Below, in pieces: positions 14,332 to 61,393 of a stretch of DNA of 64,000 nucleotides. The translations under genes and the position numbers were made by a program. Source of the DNA: Candidatus Saccharimonadota bacterium (GTDB taxonomy: Bacteria; Patescibacteriota; Saccharimonadia; Saccharimonadales; JAXHNE01); contig JAXHNE010000002.1 of assembly GCA_034520885.1 (NCBI GenBank), positions 4,787-68,786 on the forward strand, given 5' to 3'. Every line of letters begins with the position of its first letter. Position 1 is the first letter of the stretch. Below the pieces are notes generated by a model. That model made no database searches and had not been told where the DNA came from. It was given only the letters and a program-made list of their open reading frames with translations.

Positions 14332-14520
14332 TTATTGCTCGATCTTCTTTATCTTGTTCTCGGCCGCCTTGAGCTTGGCTTCCAGCTGCTTAATCAATTC
14401 GGCGCCGCGTTCGTACTTTTTAAAAGCTTCGTCGATATCGATATCTTCCGACTCCAGCTCCGCAAACACCTCGTCCAGTTCTTCGCGTAGTTGCTGATAA
14501 GTTTTATCTGTCATGACCAT
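14332..14520 (-). CDS. xseB: exodeoxyribonuclease VII small subunit
   Basis: 62-aa helical protein; ...LREELDEVFAELESEDIDIDEAFKKYERGAELIKQL is the typical XseB pattern. Confidence 0.85.
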   Translation of the reverse strand: MVMTDKTYQQLREELDEVFAELESEDIDIDEAFKKYERGAELIKQLEAKLKAAENKIKKIEQ

Positions 14521-14935
14521 TAGTTTATAGGTTTTAGTGGTTAGATGCTAGAGATTAGGGGTTAGAGGTTAGTAGGTGGAAGGCGGTAAGCGACTTCGTC
14601 GCAATAGACGATAGATGAGAATTAATAGGTGATAGATGAGGGGTGATGGGTCGTATAGTTGGTAGGTGGCAGTTCTATAGTTCTGAGTAGTGAGTGGTGA
14701 GCTTCAGATAATACTAGAATTAATATCTAGTATTAATTCTAGTATTATTGAAACTTACCAGGCACGAACTGGAAGATAGCAGTTGGCAAGCGGGAAGCTT
14801 TTAGACCCGGAACCGCCGCCACCTCGTTTATCACCTATTAATTCTCATCTATCGTCCTATTGCCTACCGAAGTCGCCTACCTCTTATCTATCACCTATCG
14901 ACTATTATCTATTAACTCTCACCTATGCGGCTTTG
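14521..14935. mobile_element. foldback (MITE/IVS-like) element with heptamer-word arms, a long inverted repeat and a 42-bp AT palindrome
   Basis: The left half is C-poor and the right half is its G-poor complement. 14590-14634 is the inverted repeat of 14829-14876. The near-perfect palindrome is at 14708-14749. There is no ORF, and the element separates xseB from xseA. Confidence 0.7.
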
Positions 14936-16057
14936 CCGCACCTCCCCTTTGCGTGCCGTAAATCTACCCTTGCTTAGTTGAATATCCAGCTCTGCCCCAC
15001 CGGGGATTTTACTTGCGTCACGGGCGGCTTTTCCGTTATGCCGCACCACGGCGAAACCGCGTTTTAACACGTGCTGTGGACTATAAGCTTGTAATAATTT
15101 TTTGCGCTGCTCTAGCGCCTCACGCTGGACGACAAGTTTATCCCGTAACACGTCAAATAGCTGCCGTTTTTGCCGATCCAGCTCGGTTTTGCCCGCGTGC
15201 AACAGTGAACGCAGCAGCCTCGCCAACTCCTGCTGAGAACTTAAAAGTTGCCGGCGTTGATCGCGCTTATCCGGCACCAGCAATTCCGCCGCGTTGCTGG
15301 GCGTGCTGGCGCGCTGATCGGCGGCCTGCTCCGCCAAACTGGTGTCTACCTCGTGCCCGATGGCCACCAAAGTCGGGATCCGGCTGGCGGCAACGGCGCG
15401 CGTCACGTGCTCGTCACTAAAAGCAGCTAGGTCGTCGGCGCTGCCGCCACCTCTGGTAATCACCAGCACGTCAACCGCGTAGTCGGAGTGCGTGTTAAAT
15501 AATTCGATGGCACCGGCGATTTGCCTGGGCGCCACCTCGCCCTGGACTTGGACGTCTTTGTGCAAAATCTCAATCCCCTGCCAACGCGCATTCAACACCT
15601 TTATAAAATCCTTGTAGGCGGCCGATTCGCCGGAGGTGATCAATCCGATTCGTTCCGGCGGATACGGCAAGGTTCGCTTACGCGCGGGATCGAACAGCCC
15701 TTCTTTCGTCAGCTTGGCTTCCAAAAGCGCGGCGGCTTTTTTAATGCTGCCCTCCCCGCTAGGGCGCACACTCCGCAAGTTAATACTGAACCCGAAACGC
15801 GGGTGCAAACGTGGCGTACCGTTAATTTTTACCAGCATACCGTCTTCCAGCGGCCCCGGGAGCTGATACACGCTGCCAAAACACTTTACGCTGGCTTCGT
15901 CATCTTTGACATCGAAATACACCCACTTGTTTTTGCTAATCCGAAAGTTGGCAATCTCACCCTCTACGACCACGTGCGAAAGCGCGAACTCTAGCGTTTG
16001 ATTCACCGTGGCCACGAATTCGACCGGCCGCATCACCAATTCTTCTTGCTCATGCAT
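14912..16057 (-). CDS. xseA: exodeoxyribonuclease VII large subunit
   Basis: OB-fold N-terminus, GLITSGESAAYKDF, VLVITRGGGSADDLAAF, and a coiled-coil C-terminus. The last roughly 8 codons and the stop lie inside the foldback element. Confidence 0.9.
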   Translation of the reverse strand: MHEQEELVMRPVEFVATVNQTLEFALSHVVVEGEIANFRISKNKWVYFDVKDDEASVKCFGSVYQLPGPLEDGMLVKINGTPRLHPRFGFSINLRSVRPSGEGSIKKAAALLEAKLTKEGLFDPARKRTLPYPPERIGLITSGESAAYKDFIKVLNARWQGIEILHKDVQVQGEVAPRQIAGAIELFNTHSDYAVDVLVITRGGGSADDLAAFSDEHVTRAVAASRIPTLVAIGHEVDTSLAEQAADQRASTPSNAAELLVPDKRDQRRQLLSSQQELARLLRSLLHAGKTELDRQKRQLFDVLRDKLVVQREALEQRKKLLQAYSPQHVLKRGFAVVRHNGKAARDASKIPGGAELDIQLSKGRFTARKGEVRQSRIGES

Positions 16058-17211: not shown

Positions 17212-18513
17212 ATGAAGTCACTGGCAATTTTAGGACGGCAACCGGCAATTGGCCTTGCGGAGCTGGAGTCGCTGTATGGCGCCGAAGCCGTACGACCCGT
17301 CGGCGAAAACGCCGTTACCGTTAACATCGCCCCCGATCAAATTGAGTTCAGGCGGCTGGGGGGCACGGTAAAGCTCGCCAAATTATTGACAGTTTTAGAT
17401 TTTACGAACTGGGATAAAATTGAAGATTTTCTGGCCGAGGAACTCCCCAAGCACACCTGTTGCATTACGGAAGGCAAACTGACGCTGGGGCTGAGCGCCT
17501 ACGGGTTCAAAATGAGTCCCAAAAAATTAAACGCCACTGCCCTGTCGCTGAAAAAGACCATCAAAGCCACCGACCGGCCGGTAAGAATTGTACCCAATAA
17601 GTCACTGGAGCTTTCCAGTGCACAGGTACTGCATAACAAATTATTTACCTCGCACAATTGGGAGCTCATTTTGCTGCGTGACGGCAACGAAACCTACCTG
17701 GCACAAACTACCAACGTGCAAGATATCGACGCTTACGCCGCCCGCGACCAAGCCCGGCCGGCCCGGGACGCAAAGGTCGGCATGCTCCCACCGAAATTAG
17801 CCCAAACGATAATTAATTTGGCTGTAGGCCAAATTAAAAAGATTGAAGATCGAGGACAGGAGAACGAAGAAAAAAACCCTCAATCCTCAATCCCCCATCC
17901 TCTATCAGTTTTTGATCCGTTTTGCGGAACGGGCGTGATACTACAAGAAGCGCTACTAATGGGATATCAAGTGACTGGAACGGATCTCGATGCACGTATG
18001 GTCGAATACGCCCGGCGCAACATGGACTGGCTCCAGCAAAAATGGAAGGTGGAAGGTGGAAGATGGAAGGTGGCAGGTGGCAAATGGAAGGTGGAAAATG
18101 GCGATGCAACGGATTACTCCTGGCCTGCGCTCTCAGCTTCCGGCTCTCGGCTCTCGGCTACCATCGCTTGCGAAACGTACTTGGGACGACCGTTTTCTTC
18201 CGCGCCGGATCACGCTACGCTGCAAAAAGTCATGCGTGACGTGGACACCATCCACGAAAAGTTTTTAAAAAACGTGGCCTCGCAGACGGAGTCGGGTTTT
18301 CGAATGTGCCTCGCCGTGCCGGCATGGGCACGCCACAGACAACAGACAACAGACAACAGACAACAGACTTTTAGGCATTTACCGGTGCTTGAAAAATTGA
18401 ACGAACTGGGGTATACTCGATTAAGTTTTGCTCACGCAAGAAACGAGGAGTTGATCTATCACCGAGAAGGTCAAATCGTCGGCCGTGAGCTCGTCGTTCT
18501 AAAAAGAACGTAA
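17212..18513 (+). CDS. RNA (guanine-N2-type, Trm11/UPF0020-like) methyltransferase carrying three in-frame low-complexity inserts
   Basis: N-terminal THUMP-like region and SAM motif I VFDPFCGTGVILQEALLMG. The inserts are at 17841-17906, 18038-18165 and 18335-18368. Confidence 0.7.
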   Translation: MKSLAILGRQPAIGLAELESLYGAEAVRPVGENAVTVNIAPDQIEFRRLGGTVKLAKLLTVLDFTNWDKIEDFLAEELPKHTCCITEGKLTLGLSAYGFKMSPKKLNATALSLKKTIKATDRPVRIVPNKSLELSSAQVLHNKLFTSHNWELILLRDGNETYLAQTTNVQDIDAYAARDQARPARDAKVGMLPPKLAQTIINLAVGQIKKIEDRGQENEEKNPQSSIPHPLSVFDPFCGTGVILQEALLMGYQVTGTDLDARMVEYARRNMDWLQQKWKVEGGRWKVAGGKWKVENGDATDYSWPALSASGSRLSATIACETYLGRPFSSAPDHATLQKVMRDVDTIHEKFLKNVASQTESGFRMCLAVPAWARHRQQTTDNRQQTFRHLPVLEKLNELGYTRLSFAHARNEELIYHREGQIVGRELVVLKRT

Positions 18514-19490: not shown

Positions 19491-21011
19491 TTAGAGCTTT
19501 GCCTTTCTTTTATTATTTTCTTGTCGCTCTACACCTCTCGACGCTCTAAATGATTTAATCGGAGCAAACTGATCTAAGAATTTGGAAATATCTACGTACT
19601 CGCCACTTGCCTTCGTAGAGGTGAATCTTGTTGGTATAGCGGTTGTCTGCTTATTATACTCAAGCGGTTTGGTGGTTAATATTCCTGAATACATCATCGT
19701 CTCGTCGGTACCATATGCCGTTGCCCTGCTATCCGCGGAGCGAATCCGATCGATCCATACGCGCCCTTCTTTGTCATACGCCATGTGCCAATGCACGCGT
19801 GCGCCATTTATGGAAGCCTCGTAAACCTCTTTTGTAATCTGCCCAAGATGAGGGTGGCTGTCCATATACGTCTCTACCGGTGAGTCGAACGTGGGCACTC
19901 CTTCCTCTTTTGATAGTTCACTATTTATTTTTTCAACGTAGTCACTGAGCGCATCACCGGCTTCTCCTGCCCCGACACCGAGTTGTTCGGCAACGTCTTG
20001 CTCTCCAAGAGTTCCGGTTCGTACTTGCTGTAAAAGCCCATTTAATTCGCGATTACCGAACCCAAGAACTCCAACTTTCTCATAAAATTCATTCATACTG
20101 ACCACGGCTTCGTGATGCGCCATAAAAAGTTCTCGAGGGTCGGTGTACGGAGCATGATCTCCATAAAACTCACTGGCTTCCTCTACGATTTTCCTAAACT
20201 CCGGGTGCAGTTGGGTATCTTGCGTGTATTGTGCGAGTGAACCGGTTTCGGGTCCTTTTACGAAACGCTGACTTTGGCTTTCAATACCTTGCGAAACCCG
20301 CAAACTTCCTTCCGAATTTGAGCGGTAAACAAAAAAAGTGTGCGAATTGCCTTCCTTGTCCGTGGATTCGAACACAAGCGATCTTTCCCGTTCGTTTACG
20401 GCGAACGCCCCTCTTAGCTCGTAGGATACGTCATCAATTTTACGTTCAAAATTGCCTTCTTTTTCTTGACTTTCAGGGGTTTCAAGTGGATTCGTAATTA
20501 CTGATGTGCCGTTAGTTGATTCTAGATCGGTAATGTTTACGCGGCCGTTCTCGTAAGACACCGAAAAATGGTTCCTGGAGACATGATCGTCCTCAAGACC
20601 GAGACGTTTCGCGTGGTGGGCTCTCCCGTACACCTTTTCACCGCTATTCTCGCGAACCGGCATAACAGCGTCCGAAGCCGGCCGCGCCTCATCTTCATCG
20701 GCTTTAGTATCCGGGTCGTACTCTTGGGAGCCAAGAAACAAAAAACCGTTCGGGTTGATCCTGCCACTCTCGGCGGGTGCCCACAATTTAACCCCTCTGC
20801 CCGCAACATCCATTACCGCTACGAGAGCCGAGGTTTCACGCATCTCTAGTGGCTCAACTGTGCTCAGATCAATGGAAAGAGCACCTTCGCCCAAGTTATG
20901 CAATTCTAGCTGTTGGTGTCGCGCTTCCGTTTCCTGGTCTATATCAGTTACGAACGGCTTTACTTGCTCAACGGCGTCAGAAGAGAGTGGGTCTTGTTCA
21001 AAGCTTTTCAT
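19491..21011 (-). CDS. FHA-domain protein with a large uncharacterised C-terminal region
   Basis: The central segment VYGRAHHAKRLGLEDDHVSRNHFSVSYENGRVNITDLESTNGTSV matches the FHA pattern (GR...S..H....N...D..S.NGT). Confidence 0.7.
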   Translation of the reverse strand: MKSFEQDPLSSDAVEQVKPFVTDIDQETEARHQQLELHNLGEGALSIDLSTVEPLEMRETSALVAVMDVAGRGVKLWAPAESGRINPNGFLFLGSQEYDPDTKADEDEARPASDAVMPVRENSGEKVYGRAHHAKRLGLEDDHVSRNHFSVSYENGRVNITDLESTNGTSVITNPLETPESQEKEGNFERKIDDVSYELRGAFAVNERERSLVFESTDKEGNSHTFFVYRSNSEGSLRVSQGIESQSQRFVKGPETGSLAQYTQDTQLHPEFRKIVEEASEFYGDHAPYTDPRELFMAHHEAVVSMNEFYEKVGVLGFGNRELNGLLQQVRTGTLGEQDVAEQLGVGAGEAGDALSDYVEKINSELSKEEGVPTFDSPVETYMDSHPHLGQITKEVYEASINGARVHWHMAYDKEGRVWIDRIRSADSRATAYGTDETMMYSGILTTKPLEYNKQTTAIPTRFTSTKASGEYVDISKFLDQFAPIKSFRASRGVERQENNKRKAKL

Positions 21012-21061: not shown

Positions 21062-21100
21062 GTCAACTTGCGTTCAGAACAAAGCAGGCTCGACGGTATG

Positions 21101-21600
21101 AGTACTAAACCTGGCGTCCTGACTTTGTGCCAGATTGAAATTTTATCCGCGAAGCGCCAAGGAAGCGTACTGAACGTACGGTGACTGCGACTCGTAAGGA
21201 TAAAATACTCAAGCTGGCCAAGAAACATGAATCGCGCGCCTAGTGCTCACACTTGAGTACAGTTTGGTCGTTCTTTTCGAGGAGCGGACCGAGTACTAAA
21301 CCTGGCGTCCTGACTTTGTGCCAGATTGAAATTTTATCCGCGAAGCGCCAAGGAAGCGTACTGAACGTACGGTGACTGCGACTCGTAAGGATAAAATATT
21401 CAAGCTGGCCAAGAAACATGAATCGCGCGCTTAGTGCTCACACTTGAGTACAGTTTGGTCGTTCTTTTCGAGGAGCGGACCGAGTACTAAACCTGGCGTA
21501 CTGACTTTGTGCCAGATTGAAATTTTATCCGCGAAGCGCCAAGGAGGCGTATTAATATACGGTGACTGCGACTCGTAAGGATAAAATATTCAAGCTGGCC
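21101..21600 (+). repeat. tandem repeat, 191-bp unit x about 2.6 (candidate multi-unit ncRNA)
   Basis: Units start at 21101, 21292 and 21483 and are nearly identical by eye. Each has several hairpins, including GCGTAC-TGAAC-GTACGGTGACTGCGA. Confidence 0.85.
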
Positions 21601-21605
21601 AAAGA

Positions 21606-21658: not shown

Positions 21659-22117
21659 TCAGGACGCCAGGTGGGCTTTAACGCGTTCTACCACGTCCGC
21701 AATAACCACCTGCGACTTCACCAAATAATCATCAACGCCCAAATCCTGGGCGCGTTGTTTGTCGCTGTCCTGGCTAAGCGCGGTTAACATTACCACCTTT
21801 ACGTTGGAGGTTTCCGGCGTATTACGCAAAATGTCCAGCACGTCGAACCCGCTGACCTTGGGCATCATCACGTCCAGCAAAATGATATCCGGCTTGTATT
21901 CCATGGCCGAGGAAAGCGCGTCTTCCCCGTTGGGAACCCGTTTGGTATCAAACCCTTCGGCCTGGAAACGCGTGGTGTAGACACTTGCCAGCGCGTCGTC
22001 ATCTTCAACCAGCAGTATTTTCTTGGCCTTTGGCTGCGGATCATTGGACGGATTGGCTTGCGTTTGCTGATTTTCTTGCGGCGCTTGGCCTTGATTTTCT
22101 TGGTTTTCGTCGTTCAT
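21659..22117 (-). CDS. stand-alone response-regulator receiver protein (canonical Asp) with Gln/Asn-rich N-terminus
   Basis: KILLVEDDDALA...PDIILLDVMMPKVSGFDVL...VVMLTALS...DYLVKS. ATG at 22117 is preceded by AAGGAA. Confidence 0.85.
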   Translation of the reverse strand: MNDENQENQGQAPQENQQTQANPSNDPQPKAKKILLVEDDDALASVYTTRFQAEGFDTKRVPNGEDALSSAMEYKPDIILLDVMMPKVSGFDVLDILRNTPETSNVKVVMLTALSQDSDKQRAQDLGVDDYLVKSQVVIADVVERVKAHLAS

Positions 22118-22215
22118 TGAAAGTTCCTTGTTACTACTAGTGTTTATGATGACGCATTCTAATAATTTAAGCAAGCCCCGTGGCGGACTCTTTCACGATA
22201 TTTCGGCAAGTGGCG

Positions 22216-51542: not shown

Positions 51543-52268
51543 TTAAGTTCCGAAACGTCTCTTTCTCGTACCGTACCAGTCTAGCGCATCCTGGAAATCT
51601 TGTAACGTAAAATCCGGCCATAGTTTTTGCGCGAAATACAGTTCGCTATACGCCGCGCGTAAAAGCATGAACCCGCTGGTGCGTTGTTCCCCGGAGGTGC
51701 GAATCACTAAATCCACCGGTGGAATCATGTCGCCTTCATACAAAAGCGAGTGCAAAACGTCCTTGCTCATGTCCTCCGGAGCGATTCTCTTTTCCAAGGC
51801 TTTTTTGTAAACGTCAATCAACTCGTCTTCCCCGCCGTAGTTAAAACACAGCGCCAACGTGCCTTTGGTATTATCTTTGGTTTTTTCTTCCGTTCGGGCA
51901 ATGGCCCGGGCCACGTTTTTGGGGATGTCGGTTTTACGCCCCAAAATTACGATTTTGATTCCCGCTTTATGAAAAGTGTCCAGGTAGTTTTCCACCGCTT
52001 TGGTGACCAACTTCATTAAATACCCGACTTCTTCTTCGGTGCGTGACCAGTTTTCGCTGGAAAACACGAACGCCGAAAGGTACTTTACGCCGCGATCAAA
52101 CGCCCCGAGCGCAATCTCCTTAAAAACTTCCGCGCCTTCCCGGTGCCCTTCCATTGTCGGCAAGCCCTTGGCTTTCGCCCACCGCCGATTACCGTCTAGA
52201 ATTATTCCAACGTGAGTGGGCACGGATTGGGGATTGAGGATTGGGGATTGAGGAGATTCAGTTGGCAT
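51543..52268 (-). CDS. uppS: isoprenyl transferase (undecaprenyl diphosphate synthase)
   Basis: HVGIILDGNRRWAKAKG and RTSGEQRTSGFMLL. The start is either ATG 52268 or GTG 52223; the 15 codons between them are encoded by heptamer-word repeat. Confidence 0.9.
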   Translation of the reverse strand: MPTESPQSPILNPQSVPTHVGIILDGNRRWAKAKGLPTMEGHREGAEVFKEIALGAFDRGVKYLSAFVFSSENWSRTEEEVGYLMKLVTKAVENYLDTFHKAGIKIVILGRKTDIPKNVARAIARTEEKTKDNTKGTLALCFNYGGEDELIDVYKKALEKRIAPEDMSKDVLHSLLYEGDMIPPVDLVIRTSGEQRTSGFMLLRAAYSELYFAQKLWPDFTLQDFQDALDWYGTRKRRFGT

Positions 52269-52626
52269 TTTTACTCCGTAAAGAACCGTTGAGTGCATGA
52301 AGCATACGGGATATTATCGCACATTCTTTCAGTATTTCATCGGCCGGTAGTCGGTATACTTTTTGTGCAGTGATCACCTGTGTTTCGAGTTCGGCCAGCG
52401 AACCAAGAGCAATATCATTAAATCGGATCGTGTCTTTGTTCCCGAACCTTTTTTGACCTTCAGCGATATTTGACGCTACCGAGACTGCCGCCCTTTTCAT
52501 CTGATCGGCAAGAGCAAATTGTTCCGTCTTTGGTAGCTGTGTAATGAGTTCATAGTTTGTCACCGCGAGCTCGACCGCTCGCTGCCACACTTCCAGCTTT
52601 TGATATTCATGAGCACCCATACTCAA
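52258..52626 (-). CDS. four-helix-bundle protein (23S rRNA intervening-sequence protein / Avd-like family)
   Basis: YQKLEVWQRAVELAV...QMKRAAVSVASNIAEGQKRFGNKD...LGSLAELETQ is the family signature. The gene is flanked by inverted heptamer-word repeats. Confidence 0.85.
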   Translation of the reverse strand: MSMGAHEYQKLEVWQRAVELAVTNYELITQLPKTEQFALADQMKRAAVSVASNIAEGQKRFGNKDTIRFNDIALGSLAELETQVITAQKVYRLPADEILKECAIISRMLHALNGSLRSKNAN

Positions 52627-53280: not shown

Positions 53281-54100
53281 GTTTGGACGGTAGAGGCGAG
53301 GAGTTGGTAGGTAGTAGATAGGAGATCGGGGATTGAGGATTGAGGATTGAGGAAAGAGTTCTGGGTTCATAGTTCATGGATAGGGTTTAGGGGCTAGGAG
53401 TTGGAAGATGGAAGTTGGAATTTGGTAGATAGAAGATGGTAGTTGGGAGTTAGTATTTCGTAGACAGTTGTCAGTTGTCCGTCTTCAGTAGTTGCGTTGT
53501 TCCAGGCTCTGGCTGAACTGATTGGACGATACGGGCAAAACCAGCAAACAAGCCTCAAGCTTGTTTTTTATGTAGTTACAACTGCCCTCGGCAGTTGTTC
53601 ACTTGGGCTCCAGGCTTCGAAAGCCTCCCCGGTAGTAGAACCAGTTCACTACGGGGCACGCCTGAGGAGCGAGTGTCAAAAGCACAATTTCTGCCGAGGA
53701 CTTGTTTGAGGGGTTGCCGGCTGAAGTATTTTGGCATACCCCGAGTTGTCCGAGCATTGTGCTTTTTGATAATGAGATCATAAAGAGGTTTTCGCGCCTG
53801 TGGCCTTTTTGGGGCACTTTTTGGCTACGCAAAAAGTGTCTGGGGGTGAAGCTGACCAGTCAGCTTCAATAATGACAGAACAAGATAGTGGGTCGGGAAA
53901 GCAAAAGCGAAGCTTTGCGCCGAAAAAACATACTTTGGGGCACTTTTTGGCCATGCAAAAAGTGCCTGACGGGAAGCTGACCAGACAGCTTCATATAATT
54001 CGTTACTGCCTACGATATTGATCGTATAGTTACAGTTGTCTAGCCCCTGTTGCAGAGCAATAATACTAGAATTAATACTAGTATTAATTCTAGTATTATT
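53281..54100. mobile_element. one-armed member of the foldback family: heptamer-word arm, roughly 590-bp structured non-coding core, perfect 42-bp AT palindrome
   Basis: Word arm at 53281-53470, hairpin modules at 53497-53995, palindrome at 54059-54100. The only ORFs here are short and inconsistent. Confidence 0.7.
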
Positions 54101-57702: not shown

Positions 57703-58753
57703 ATGGATAAAAAGGAACAAGACCTACGCGACGAGCTCGCCGACATTATGAAACAGCTGGAAGATCCGGCTATTTTCAGCACGCCCGAGTATCCCAAAAT
57801 GCCGCCAAAAAAAGATAGAAGACATACTCGCGCTTTACGATGAACTGGCAAAGAGCAAAGAGCAAAGAGCAAAGAGCAAAGAGCTTCTGGACTCTGACGA
57901 TGAAGAATTGGCCGAACTCGCCAAAAGCGAGATAGAAGATCTGGATTTGAAAATTGAAACCCTCGAACTTAAACTAACGGAGGCTTTGACTCCAAAGGAT
58001 CCCAACGACGAAAAAGATGCCATTATAGAAATTCGCGCCGCGGCCGGTGGCGATGAAGCCGCCCTGTTCGCCGGCGAGCTATACCGCATGTACGCCCGTT
58101 GGTGCGAAACGCACGGCTACAAAATAGAACTTATCAACGAAAGTCCCGCGGAAGTCGGCGGGTTCAAAGAAATCAGCTTTTTGGTGCGCGGCGAAGACAC
58201 CTATAAATTCTTTAAGTTCGAAGGCGGCGTACACCGCGTTCAGCGCGTGCCGGAAACCGAAAGCCAAGGCCGCGTGCACACCAGCACCGTGACCGTGGCG
58301 GTCATGCCCGAAGCCGAAGAAACCGACATTGAAATCGACCAAAACGACCTTCGCGTAGATGTCTACCGAGCCGGCGGCCACGGCGGGCAATCCGTAAATA
58401 CTACGGACTCCGCCGTACGCATCACCCACGTGCCAACGGGGGTCGTTGTTACCAACCAGGACGAAAAATCGCAAATCAAAAACAAGCTCAAAGCCATGAA
58501 CGTATTACGTTCCCGCCTGCTCCAGCACAAAATTGACGAAGAAAACGCCAAGCTATCAGCTGAACGCAAAAAGCTGGTCGGCAGCGGCGACCGCAGCGAG
58601 AAAATCCGCACCTACAACTTCCCGCAGGACCGCATTACCGATCACCGTATTGGCTACTCCCGCAGCAACATCCCCGGAGCTTTGGACGGCCAAATAGACG
58701 ACCTCATAGAAGAACTCCACAAAGCCGAACACGAACTAATGAGTAACGAGTAA
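57703..58753 (+). CDS. prfA: peptide chain release factor 1, reading frame broken by one extra base at an A7 run (57807-57813)
   Basis: Frame 1 (57703-57813) encodes MDKKEQDLRDELADIMKQLEDPAIFSTPEYPKMPPKK. Frame 2 continues IEDILALYDEL...PKDPND...GGHGGQSVNTTDSAVRITH... to 58753. Frame 1 stops at 57841. Confidence 0.85.
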
Positions 58754-59637: not shown

Positions 59638-60513
59638 ATGATTACCATTTCTAGGTGGATGGCTAAAAAAACTAAAGCGCTAGAGAGCGCCGGGATTTCC
59701 ACCGCTCGACTGGATTGTTTGGTGCTTTTAGAGGACGCGACCGGTAAAGATCGTTCATGGTTGCTGGCGCATCCGGAGCACGAGTTAGAAAGTTCAAAAG
59801 TTAAAAAGCTGAAAGAGCAAGTTCAGCGGCGGGCTAAGCATGAGCCGCTGGCCTATATTCGTGGGCGGAGTGCTTTTTATGGCCGGGAGTTTTTGGTGAA
59901 CGAACATACTTTGCAGCCCCGGCCGGAAACGGAAACGATGATCGACCACTTAAAATCACTGTACAAGGTTGAACCTTGTACAGAAGCTAAAAGCTCTGAG
60001 CGAAAAGCTCTGAGCATAGTAGATGTAGGGACTGGATCTGGTTGTATTGGGATTACCGCCAAGCTGGAGCTGCCGGATGCGGAAGTGTATGCCACGGACA
60101 TTTCCGAAGAATGCTTAAAAATAGCCCGAAAAAACGCCCGAAAACTAAAAGCCAATGTGGAGTTCCACAAAGCTAATCTCCTCCTCTCCCAAAAAAATAA
60201 TTCTCACTTTTTGAACGATCGTTCAAAAAGTGAGAATATTGTTTTGCTGGCTAATTTACCTTATGTTCCGGAAGGTTTCACTATAAACCAAGCCGCGATG
60301 TTCGAGCCGGACGTTGCCATATTCGGCGGTAAGGACGGATTGGATTACTACCGCGAGTTATTCGCCCAGATTGAAACGCTAAAAACTAAACCACATTTCA
60401 TTTTTACCGAAAGCCTACCAACGCAGCACAAAGACCTGACTGCAATCGCAGAAAAACACGGGTTTCGGCTTCATGAATGCCAGGATTTTATTCAAGTATT
60501 TATTAGGCGTTAG
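59638..60513 (+). CDS. prmC: release-factor glutamine methyltransferase PrmC/HemK
   Basis: EPLAYIRGRSAFYGREF, VDVGTGSGCIGI, and NLPYV in place of NPPY. ATG at 59638. The stop TAG (60511-60513) lies within the terminal motif of the downstream foldback element. Confidence 0.85.
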   Translation: MITISRWMAKKTKALESAGISTARLDCLVLLEDATGKDRSWLLAHPEHELESSKVKKLKEQVQRRAKHEPLAYIRGRSAFYGREFLVNEHTLQPRPETETMIDHLKSLYKVEPCTEAKSSERKALSIVDVGTGSGCIGITAKLELPDAEVYATDISEECLKIARKNARKLKANVEFHKANLLLSQKNNSHFLNDRSKSENIVLLANLPYVPEGFTINQAAMFEPDVAIFGGKDGLDYYRELFAQIETLKTKPHFIFTESLPTQHKDLTAIAEKHGFRLHECQDFIQVFIRR

Positions 60514-61393
60514 ATGCTAGACGTTAGAGGGTAGAGGGTAGAAGTTGGAAGTTGGAATTTGGAAGGTGGAAGATGGTAGGCGACTTCTTCGCAAAAGGTG
60601 AGAGTTAATAGATAAGGGTTAATAGATGATAGATGAAGGGTGGTAGATGGAAGATGGAAGATAGAAGATGGAAGATGGGGAAAATAATAAGTAAAACATA
60701 AATAGTAAGTTTCCGGGCTCTGCCTGAAACGATTGGACGGCGCCTCGGGTAAAAACCGACAAACAAGCTTCAAGCTTGTTTTTTATGTAGTTACAACTGC
60801 TCCGGAGCAGTTGTTCACTTGGCCTCCAGGCTCTGGAACAACCTGGACGGACGTTGTGGGAATCAGGCGCCCTTGGGTACGAGGACTGTCTGAGCAGAAA
60901 TGGTGCCTGGCGGCACCATTTCTGTGAGTTTCACAGTAAGCCTGATTGTGACAACGGCCGTAGCTGTTGTTTCAGCCGCCTGTCGGCTTTTGTTGCAATC
61001 TTTTGCCGACTCAAAAGATTGCTGACGGGGAGCTGGTCAGTCAGCTTCGCTATTGGCGGAACAAGATAGTGGGTCGGGAAAGCAAAAGCGAAGCTTTGCG
61101 CCGAAAAAACATACTTTGGGGCACTTTTTGGCCATGCAAAAAGTGCCTGGTGGTGAAGCTGACCAGACAGCTTCTATTAGTAGTTACCTACTACTTTGAT
61201 TGTATAGTTATGGCCGTATCGCCCTTGTTAAAACGTAATAATACTAGTATTAACTCTAGTATTAATACTAGTATTATTTTTACTAACTATGAGGTGCTAT
61301 CTTCCATATCCTAAATTCCATCTTCCAAGCACTATCTTCTAGCCCCTGTCTTCAATCTTCAATCCCCAATCTTCATTCCGTAACAACTATGAA
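60509..61393. mobile_element. complete foldback-family element: two inverted heptamer-word arms, structured core, 42-bp AT palindrome
   Basis: Left arm 60509-60700 (C-poor), core 60712-61176, palindrome 61237-61278, right arm 61285-61393 (G-poor, the reverse complement of arm-type sequence also seen at 53300-53440). It fills the whole prmC-htrA convergent spacer. Confidence 0.75.

Follow-up and report, generated by a model that had tools for sequence, protein, structure and literature searches.

In a stretch of 64,000 nucleotides (nt) from a Candidatus Saccharimonadota bacterium (assembly GCA_034520885.1, contig JAXHNE010000002.1, positions 4,787 to 68,786; hereafter the window), the gene of a Trm11-like methyltransferase of 433 amino acids (aa) carries four tandem arrays built of 7-nt units. 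These segments are probably heptanucleotide arrays of the kind known as STRR (short tandemly repeated repetitive) DNA or long simple sequence repeats, made by slippage, tolerated in loops of the protein and filtered by the reading frame. The repeats are lineage-specific and arrays recur at the same positions in orthologs of other species, and in a structural model they lie in loops.

Tandem Repeats Finder (TRF) and our own scan agreed on four period-7 arrays within the open reading frame (ORF), designated sites 1, 2a, 2b and 3 (Table 1), and head-to-tail repeats of three or more copies are present at all of them (4.1, 7.7, 4.4 and 4.9 copies, respectively). An earlier note on this DNA, prepared by a model from the letters and their translations, had reported an open frame with the same coordinates, phase and encoded peptides, namely IEDRGQENEEKNPQSSIPHPLS at site 1 (residues 211-232), KWKVEGG RWKVAGG KWKVENG at site 2a (residues 277-297) and RHRQQTTDNRQQT at site 3 (residues 374-386). 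All of this was reproduced, as were the position of its first segment, which ends two codons before the S-adenosylmethionine (SAM) motif I DPFCGTG, and the perfect ACAGACA repeat of its third. Its count of three segments was not, since the second consists of two unrelated arrays (sites 2a and 2b). Under one scoring scheme the window holds 12 period-7 arrays, against about 0.1 in shuffled sequence, and the same scoring gave 0-1 arrays for each of the other periods from 4 to 11 and six for period 12.

The source of the window is a metagenome-assembled genome (MAG), and an apparent frameshift of prfA at an A7 run shows that small errors are possible; an artefact of assembly or binning in low-complexity sequence, which the earlier note had itself raised, is nevertheless next to inconceivable. 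A Logan contig of run SRR26473340 is identical across the whole gene, with one mismatch in 3302 nt that lies outside it, and because this independent assembly reproduces the gene exactly, the repeats are not the artefact of a single assembler; the two identical assemblies (MAG and Logan) probably come from the same sample. Moreover, the ORF is open with all invariant residues present, and analogous arrays are found in MAGs of many unrelated projects.

Table 1. Coordinates of the Trm11-like gene, its heptamer arrays and related arrays of the window, followed by the arrays found at the corresponding sites of the gene in other loci.
Feature	Locus	Position	Strand	Repeat or content
Trm11-like ORF, 433 aa	window	17212..18513	+	THUMP plus class I Rossmann; putative tRNA m2G10 methyltransferase
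Site 1, older purine-rich half	window	17841..17869	+	GATTGAA GATCGAG GACAGGA GAACGAA G; linker between THUMP and methyltransferase; encodes IEDRGQENE
Site 1, younger half	window	17870..17906	+	A7 run plus (CCTCAAT)-type pyrimidine array; encodes KNPQSSIPHPLS
Site 1, TRF row	window	17878-17906	+	CCTCAAT x4.1
Site 2a, whole array	window	18039..18101	+	(TGGAAGG)-type, 9 units = 3 x 7 aa; alphaB-beta3 loop
Site 2a, TRF rows	window	18043-18096; period-14 row 18039-18101	+	TGGAAGG x7.7
Site 2b	window	18129..18159	+	GCTCTCG x4.4 (TRF), (GCTCTCG)-type; beta3-beta4 loop
Site 3	window	18335..18368	+	ACAGACA x4.9 (TRF), 100% identical; beta-hairpin turn after AVPAW
uppS-start array	window	52224..52254	-	(GGATTGR)n, reads SPQSPILNPQS; gene 51543..52298
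Intergenic array	window	53307..53353	+	(GGATTGA), word common with site 1
prfA (RF1) array	window	57848..57884	+	(GCAAAGA) x5.3, in frame as AKSKEQRAKSKE; N-terminal domain, no net length change
Intergenic composite	window	60511..60678	+	TTAGAGG-, GTTGGAA- and TGGAAGA-type arrays, word common with site 2a
Site 1	L004			(GAGAACG)n ... (CGTTCCT)n
Site 1	L006			(AGAGACA)n
Site 1	L017			(GAGAATN)n (AATTCNC)n
Site 1	L078			AGATCTT-type arms
Site 1	L083			(TGGAAGA)n, (GTCGCCA)n, (ACAAGAG)n
Site 1	L008, L025, L101			one array apiece
Site 2a	L004			(TCTACCG)4.7
Site 2a	L082			(GGTGGAA)n
Site 2a	L083			(GTTGGAA)n
Site 2b	L078			(CCAAATT)4.4
Site 2b	L083			AAATTCC/AAAATCT
Site 3	L017			perfect hairpin AGATGTGAGAGGTgcaACCTCTCACATGT
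Site 3	L020			(GGAACGG)n GGCC (CGTTCCC)n, near-perfect inverted repeat
Site 3	L077			(CCGACAT)5.9
Site 3	L078			(CGACCAA)n

When aligned with the DNA of L081, the nearest relative found anywhere (protein P0002, 73% identical), the purine-rich half of site 1 is alignable with substitutions and therefore predates the split from that relative, whereas a contiguous block of 33 nt (17870-17902, 11 codons) is missing from L081. The description of site 1 as an insertion, given in the earlier note, thus holds for this lineage-specific block and not for the purine half, which is common to both. Between anchors the linker measures 31 residues, against modes of 10-14. Site 2a is 24 aa long, compared with an ortholog mode of 17, and its family consensus xYxLExxxYxLExGDAT, which aligns to YGVR--DYTLKLGDAT of archaeal Trm11 (aTrm11), already contains two units of a seven-residue pattern; in the model, unit 1 ends helix alphaB (residues 261-278) and unit 3 forms strand beta3 (residues 292-296). 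Only the middle seven residues (21 nt) of site 2a are extra, and the remaining two WKVExGx units, although also counted as inserted by the earlier note, are native structure present in homologs. In L082 (protein P0010) the same word occurs at this site as two units, KWKVEGGRWKVEAGDAT.

Site 2b measures 20 aa against a mode of 13, that is, seven residues or 21 nt more, and L081 carries there a degenerate period-7 sequence, AGCTTTC AGCTTTG AGCTCTC AGCATTC. At site 3 the W...L spacing is 17 aa, compared with a mode of 8-9, for a net gain of 27 nt (9 aa); L081, L082 and L083 carry no array at this site, and the site 3 array is specific to the lineage of the window. A separate observation concerns the linker of site 1, which in part of the family (L020, L021, L022, L026, L031, L032, L034, L045, L047 and L075) also hosts an ordinary, conserved insertion, a 26-aa segment of the form GxLPEdxLxxICDIPxxQxIPxxxL that bears no period-7 signal.

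Simple repeats whose unit is not a triplet are as a rule removed from the coding sequence of bacteria. The ortholog set was drawn from 80 species-representative genomes and further contigs (91 sequences including the window protein), and the period-7 survey covered the 64-kb window and about 0.6 Mb of ortholog loci, on which our genome-wide statements rest. Across the family there are four length-variable positions (10-67 aa at site 1, 12-43 at 2a, 12-34 at 2b and 8-28 at 3, array-free members included), each of which is long in the window protein. The 90 other loci yielded 31 period-7 arrays, against 1-7 for periods 5, 6 and 8-11. Their density was 0.17 per kb in the Trm11-like gene (19 arrays in 110 kb), 0.21 per kb in non-coding sequence (11 in 53 kb) and 0.002 per kb in all other coding sequence (1 in 450 kb), the last category representing the same handful of neighbouring gene families with approximate ORF calls; the gene is thus about 80-fold denser than other coding sequence (binomial p = 6e-13). 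The arrays are mostly intergenic and depleted in coding sequence, with the Trm11-like gene as the exception. Within the gene no arrays were found in these loci for periods 5, 6, 8, 9 and 11, and one for period 10.

All 19 arrays inside the orthologous genes fall within the four sites (11 at site 1, three at 2a, one at 2b and four at 3). They belong to 10 of the 90 species, scattered over the family, whose nearest neighbours are mostly array-free. Furthermore, two additional loci of 14.5 kb and 21 kb, taken from related genomes, showed strong period-7 arrays only inside the Trm11-like gene. This gene is a cross-species hot spot for heptamer arrays.

The fold of the host protein helps to define what surrounds the arrays. 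Only partial Pfam and NCBIfam matches (UPF0020, TIGR01177) were obtained, the whole protein scoring 52.7 bits against TIGR01177, for which the cut-off is 316. A profile of 28 homologs matched the aTrm11 structure 5e71 (E 4.9e-9), and a Foldseek search with the AlphaFold model returned Trm11 6zxw_G (E 1.5e-20, template modelling (TM) score normalised to the target 0.77), the full-length matches being Trm11 6zxw, 6zxv and 5e71 (E 1e-20 to 1e-18, target-normalised TM 0.74-0.77). Because these full-length structural matches are to Trm11 m2G10 tRNA methyltransferases, the protein is predicted to consist of a THUMP domain and a Rossmann methyltransferase. In the alignment with the 28 homologs all 108 family-invariant residues are present in the host protein, and SAM motif I (from D235 onward) is invariant. 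At the position of the catalytic motif IV, usually (D/N)PPY, where aTrm11 has DPPYG, the host family has an invariant ETYLG, which indicates that its catalytic loop has diverged from that of aTrm11. We file the gene as Trm11-like rather than as a proven Trm11, and its m2G10 activity, which in some lineages involves a Trm112-type partner, as putative.

The AlphaFold model of the window protein has a mean predicted local distance difference test (pLDDT) score of 88.4 and a predicted TM score of 0.89. Two stretches alone have a pLDDT under 50, namely residues 211-228 at site 1 and the extra unit of site 2a (residues 282-289), and there are dips to about 75-81 at residues 300-320 (site 2b) and about 72-76 at residues 370-389 (site 3). 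The shortest ortholog, the insert-free P0100 (383 aa), has a pLDDT of 93.7 and no segment below 50, and the two models present helices and strands in the same order. Between these shared elements, the gap from linker helix to beta1 (site 1) spans 6 aa in P0100 and 26 aa in the window protein, that from alphaB to beta3 (site 2a) 6 and 13 aa, that from beta3 to beta4 (site 2b) 12 and 19 aa, and the hairpin turn (site 3) 2 and 13 aa. In these models the inserts are loop add-ons outside the protein core. This agrees with the expectation of the earlier note, in the ortholog alignment, where the extra residues are lineage-specific additions in surface loops or the linker, as well as in the model, where the segments fall in loops or the linker and have the lowest pLDDT.

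Regarding the reading frame, a heptamer array reads all three frames within 21 nt, because 7 mod 3 = 1, and consequently its three frames are either all open or all closed. The earlier note saw in the kept frame and the absence of stop codons a sign of selection or of some mechanism, but no special mechanism is needed. A gene that is intact must be in frame, 69% of heptamer words contain no stop when repeated in tandem on one strand, and the chance of four stop-free arrays is about 0.2. At site 1, only the orientation found leaves CCTCAAT free of stops, its complement GGATTGA giving TGA, and in the purine arm GATTGAA GATCGAG a CGA stands at the very place where TGA would fall in frame in a GGATTGA-type array; the stop filter is visible in this segment. 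Gains of 21 nt recur as a quantum, with seven more residues at site 2a relative to the L082 array and at site 2b in two independent pairs, window/L081 and L083/L078, all with a period-7 signal. A quantum of seven residues at site 2a across orthologs was rejected as a general rule, since the five other cases lack a period-7 signal and represent a different subfamily insert. Removal of the inserts as inteins or self-splicing introns was also rejected, considering that they span 7-22 codons, that no Rfam match was found in the window and that the segments fold no better than shuffled sequence.

With respect to the words themselves, the conserved property is unit length, since all sequence in hand presented 39 canonical words among 45 arrays, and this argues for duplication or slippage of length 7 rather than for one mobile element. 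An excess of heptanucleotide repeats in other bacteria has been attributed to polymerase slippage, about 7 nt interacting with the polymerase (Mrazek et al., 2007, in the account given in PMC4679880), and the over-representation and its slippage explanation, again in other bacteria, are also found in PMC4692102. In this context, the Saccharimonadales lineage would generate arrays genome-wide by a process specific for the 7-nt unit length and not for the sequence; slippage during replication or tandem duplication is the most likely process, and an inverted template switch would at times follow and leave a foldback. The arrays would have landed in, or grown out of, four insertion-tolerant loops of the Trm11-like gene, where they would be transcribed and translated as flexible hydrophilic loops, presumably neutral. 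Purifying selection would keep only net changes in multiples of 3 nt, with 21 nt (three units, 7 aa) as the natural quantum, and only stop-free words, or words in a stop-free orientation, would survive.

The earlier note had seen in the segments mobile low-complexity DNA that colonises coding sequence with the word material of the intergenic elements. The sharing of words held for sites 1 and 2a: the CCTCAAT array matches the opposite strand of 53328-53345 at 18/18 nt and that of 52224-52243 at 19/20, the purine-rich half is 90% identical over 20 nt to the opposite strand of 61345-61364, and site 2a matches the intergenic array at 60560-60576 at 17/17 nt. It did not hold for sites 2b and 3, whose words occur nowhere else in the window. 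Independent arrays and foldbacks at the same sites in other Saccharimonadales lend partial support to the colonisation of this gene, but transposon hallmarks were not seen.

Insertion of preformed mobile foldbacks, similar to miniature inverted-repeat transposable elements (MITEs) or to repetitive extragenic palindromic doublets (REPINs) and taken over from heptamer-word elements in the intergenic DNA of this genome, is in our view unlikely. Its best arguments are the 33-nt block of site 1, a clean gap against L081 with the 18/18 identity just mentioned, the dispersed copies represented by composite elements with a common unique core at 14.5 kb and 60.5 kb, and the inverted arms of L020 and L017, which keep the order of unit variants and would fit either a one-step inverted duplication or the insertion of a hairpin. 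However, the diversity of words (39 among 45 arrays) and the privacy of those at sites 2b and 3 argue against it, and two arrays of one word that arose independently would equally give a perfect match of 2.6 units. The insert borders that were read showed neither conserved ends nor target-site duplications. The in-gene inserts share with other window loci only repeat words, with no terminal inverted repeats or unique core in common, and the core of the large intergenic elements is absent from the Trm11-like gene.

The foldback character of the in-gene segments is also weak. At site 1 the purine arm and what the earlier note called its complement are only 87% complementary over 15 nt, and the RNA fold is no better than shuffles (z = -1.25), which makes for a weak hairpin; a pairing between the GGAAGG array and the CT-rich arm of the second segment was rejected, the two not being complementary (z = +1.8). 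A function of these segments as RNA hairpins or foldbacks was rejected, since, in contrast to the intergenic foldback between xseA and xseB, they fold no better than shuffles. Foldbacks such as those of L020, in which both arms keep the order of unit variants, imply that an array already present was duplicated in inverted orientation in one step (template switch). As a separate observation, the loop of the site 1 foldback contains a lineage-specific heptamer of the classical -1 slippery type, A_AAA_AAC (17869-17875, zero frame GAA AAA AAC), at which a -1 shift would lead to a stop after about 13 codons and a THUMP-only product; no downstream structure is apparent 3' of it.

Slippage followed by loop tolerance and frame filtering, which we consider the probable origin of the arrays, has difficulties of its own. 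Two words, GGATTGA and TGGAAGR, occur repeatedly at different loci in the window genome, TGGAAGR is found in the Trm11-like gene of four species (window, L082, L083 and L101), and the proteins P0008 and P0104, which are among these, share EDG(G/S)WKMEDG at only 52-60% protein identity; such recurrence is not predicted by independent slippage from local seeds and therefore weighs against this origin. The net lengths of +27 nt at site 3 and, in the younger block of site 1, +33 nt are multiples of neither 7 nor 21, and further indels have to be assumed. Likewise, the arrays that occupy native sequence with no change in length, at site 2a in L004, L082 and L083 and in prfA, call for replacement and not just insertion. 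Finally, the enrichment of the gene relative to other coding sequence (0.17 vs 0.002 per kb) is not explained by tolerance alone.

Another idea is that the arrays are selected, as new disordered loops that tune the binding of tRNA or a partner, or as RNA or DNA motifs in the mRNA (e.g., sites for a heptamer-reading oligonucleotide-binding (OB)-fold protein), which we judge improbable. The repeated gain at the same four sites and the retention of EDG(G/S)WKMEDG between orthologs only 52% identical would fit it, and there is a precedent in Borg proteins, whose homologs recurrently present disordered regions made of repeats (PMC9879509). On the other hand, 80 of the 90 orthologs are array-free, an insert-free one models well, and the inserted peptides are unrelated between species. 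The notion that arrays at site 2a were selected because they imitate the native aromatic-x-L/V motif was likewise downgraded: the pattern occurs in 49% of stop-free words and is largely automatic, because in a heptamer array an aromatic codon forces xT(T/A/G) two positions later.

The earlier note had further suggested phase variation. Genes whose phase variation is mediated by simple sequence repeats (PMC4692102, PMC3315296) include, for example, the mod methyltransferases of phasevarions. By analogy, the Trm11-like gene would be a contingency locus in which gain or loss of one 7-nt unit switches the methyltransferase off or on and toggles tRNA m2G10 modification in the population, a proposal to which we give very little credence. 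The analogy lies in the non-triplet tract inside a methyltransferase ORF, perfect at (ACAGACA) x4.9, where slippage by one unit shifts the frame and would remove the last ~50 residues. Near-perfect arrays of the same gene elsewhere, (CCGACAT)5.9, (TCTACCG)4.7 and (CCAAATT)4.4, and an in-gene density at non-coding level, ~80x that of neighbouring genes, speak for it as well. Nevertheless, none of 98 other ortholog loci (90 with a full-length gene) has a broken frame; seven loci without the exact motif carry DPFAGTG or DPFCGSG, and one ORF ends at a contig end. The two assemblies of the window organism agree, and neither copy-number polymorphism nor OFF alleles were seen in the loci examined. 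In addition, copy numbers are low (<=6) and most arrays are short or degenerate, which lowers slippage, the gene encodes an intracellular tRNA-modification enzyme rather than a surface protein or a restriction-modification gene, its putative substrate is tRNA and not DNA, and the arrays are confined to structurally tolerant loops, as neutral passengers would be. There is an equally slim chance that the gene is a selected target of the heptamer-repeat process, its loop tracts tuning tRNA m2G10 methylation or switching it stochastically in episymbiotic Saccharimonadales, like a phasevarion that works through RNA modification, which would account for the non-coding-level array density in about a tenth of the species. 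If it were true that the arrays switch the enzyme on and off, this would be a new type of contingency locus.

Compared with known systems, the arrays most resemble the STRR sequences of cyanobacteria, which are tandem 7-nt units with several word families per genome and a mostly intergenic location. Reportedly, Vioque described in 1997 STRR heptamers inside the RNase P RNA gene of heterocyst-forming cyanobacteria (cited in PMC2858038). The window arrays share with these the tandem 7-nt unit, the multiple word families, the mostly intergenic distribution and the occasional presence inside a conserved gene at a tolerant position with function kept, and the window word GGGGATT (52224-52254) is a rotation of the GGGGA(T/C)T repeat of Nostoc (PMC4692102). 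In contrast, the window organism belongs to another phylum and has a reduced genome of ~1 Mb instead of a large cyanobacterial one, the host is a protein-coding ORF subject to frame and stop constraints, and four arrays occur in one gene that is recurrently affected across species. By strict cyanobacterial standards the arrays fall outside STRR, coming from a Saccharibacteria MAG with diverse words of which only GGGGATT coincides with a Nostoc word.

The GGGNATC-type heptamers of Xanthomonas and Nostoc are spread over the genome, under-represented in coding sequence, variable in copy number and sometimes arranged as inverted stem-loop pairs (Rehm et al., 2015, PMC4692102). These features are common to both; however, those repeats consist of one G-rich word that prefers four units (G-quadruplex) and avoid ORFs, whereas the window words are very diverse, with no quadruplex evidence, and the Trm11-like gene accumulates arrays. 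TAACTGA direct repeats have been described in marine Beggiatoaceae, cyanobacteria and Bacteroidetes, with orientation deciding translatability (LITDN-stop vs LSVISYQ) and linkers or protein ends as tolerated positions (MacGregor, 2015, PMC4679880). They resemble the present arrays as heptameric direct repeats whose orientation decides translation, but they represent a single favoured word, mostly upstream of start codons and with a proposed role in translation, instead of numerous words within an ORF. Each of the heptamer systems compared is described as mainly intergenic.

The tandem repeats of Borgs, for their part, arise rapidly in intergenic regions and in ORFs, where they give disordered segments that homologs acquired independently (Schoelmerich et al., 2023, PMC9879509). 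In-ORF repeats that produce disordered segments and independent gain by homologous proteins are features in common with the present case. On the contrary, the in-ORF Borg repeats of that paper are perfect at the protein level, with units of 4, 8, 12 or 17 aa, while the DNA unit of the window is 7 nt, so that the frame rotates and only triple units are neutral, and the window host is a bacterial chromosome. In the literature searched, we found no report that links heptamer repeats with Saccharibacteria, Patescibacteria or the candidate phyla radiation.

With these data, the biology of heptanucleotide (STRR-like) repeats now takes in Patescibacteria of very small genome size. The Trm11-like gene represents a natural experiment, with many independent events at four defined sites of one well-modelled fold, that could be used to study how length-7 duplication writes peptide loops and how frame and stop filters shape the survivors. 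Moreover, repeat-rich and repeat-free Saccharimonadales offer a concrete comparison of replication and repair in the search for the generator of bacterial 7-nt repeats.

The 433-aa protein is identical to the NCBI record MDZ7785585.1 ('hypothetical protein U5L95_00485') of a Candidatus Saccharibacteria MAG, the single member of its 90%-identity protein cluster, and a metagenome scan for relatives gave sequences at best <=61% identical. The family comprises at least 7977 proteins at E <= 0.001, among the 8000 candidates scored; its named members and all but one of the 80 genome loci belong to Saccharibacteria/Saccharimonadales or to unclassified Patescibacteria MAGs. The neighbourhood is kept in relatives, with xseB, xseA, a gene for an LPG-synthase-type membrane protein, the Trm11-like gene and rpmA. 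In these relatives xseA and xseB overlap or lie no more than ~40 nt apart, while the window presents between xseA (14912..16057, - strand) and xseB (~14340..14516, - strand) a 414-nt giant foldback of heptamer-like words (14517-14930), with arms of 35 nt that are 94% complementary, an inner perfect 18-nt palindrome and an RNA minimum free energy of -160 kcal/mol (z = -10.8).

Other coding sequences of the window also carry heptamer arrays. In prfA (57703-58753), which encodes release factor 1 (RF1), the first 37 codons lie in one frame and the rest in the +1 frame, with an apparent frameshift at the A7 run 57806-57812. When one A is removed, the product is a full-length RF1 (465 bits against the equivalog NF001859, residues 7-343 aligned to profile positions 3-343 of 347), and the apparent shift reflects either a mistake of the assembly or a genuine frameshift that slippage rescues. 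For uppS, the profile TIGR00055 begins at residue 26 of the ORF, and its array is either an N-terminal tail or, if the true start is further downstream, part of the 5' leader.

Among the intergenic features, the segments 14525-14660 and 60495-60645 are composite elements in which the types of array follow each other alike (first TTAGAGG-type, second GGTGGAAG-type) and which share a unique core, GGTA(A/G)GCGACTTC(G/T)TCGCAA...TAATAG...ATAGATGA; this common order and core indicate that the genome contains a dispersed family of repeats with heptamer arrays inside them. Two copies of a conserved ~130-nt element (53480-53620 and 60700-60840) lie directly downstream of purine-rich heptamer arrays and consist of CAAACAAGC(Y)TCAAGCTTGTTTTTT, a hairpin plus T run, and then a hairpin ACAACTGC...GCAGTTGT. 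This element gave no Rfam match and may represent a small RNA that lacks annotation, or else a regulatory region present in more than one copy; neither Rfam families nor tRNAs were found in the window. Between the ORFs 19491..21011 and 21659..22174, a unit of 191 nt is repeated 2.6 times in tandem with 97% identity (21100-21602). Finally, L099, a short metagenome contig whose match was confined to the KWKVENGD pattern, has an (AATGGAG)n array of 76 nt at 177-252 and (CCTTCAA)n at 7-45, denoting that long GGA-type heptamer arrays are present in other uncultured organisms too.

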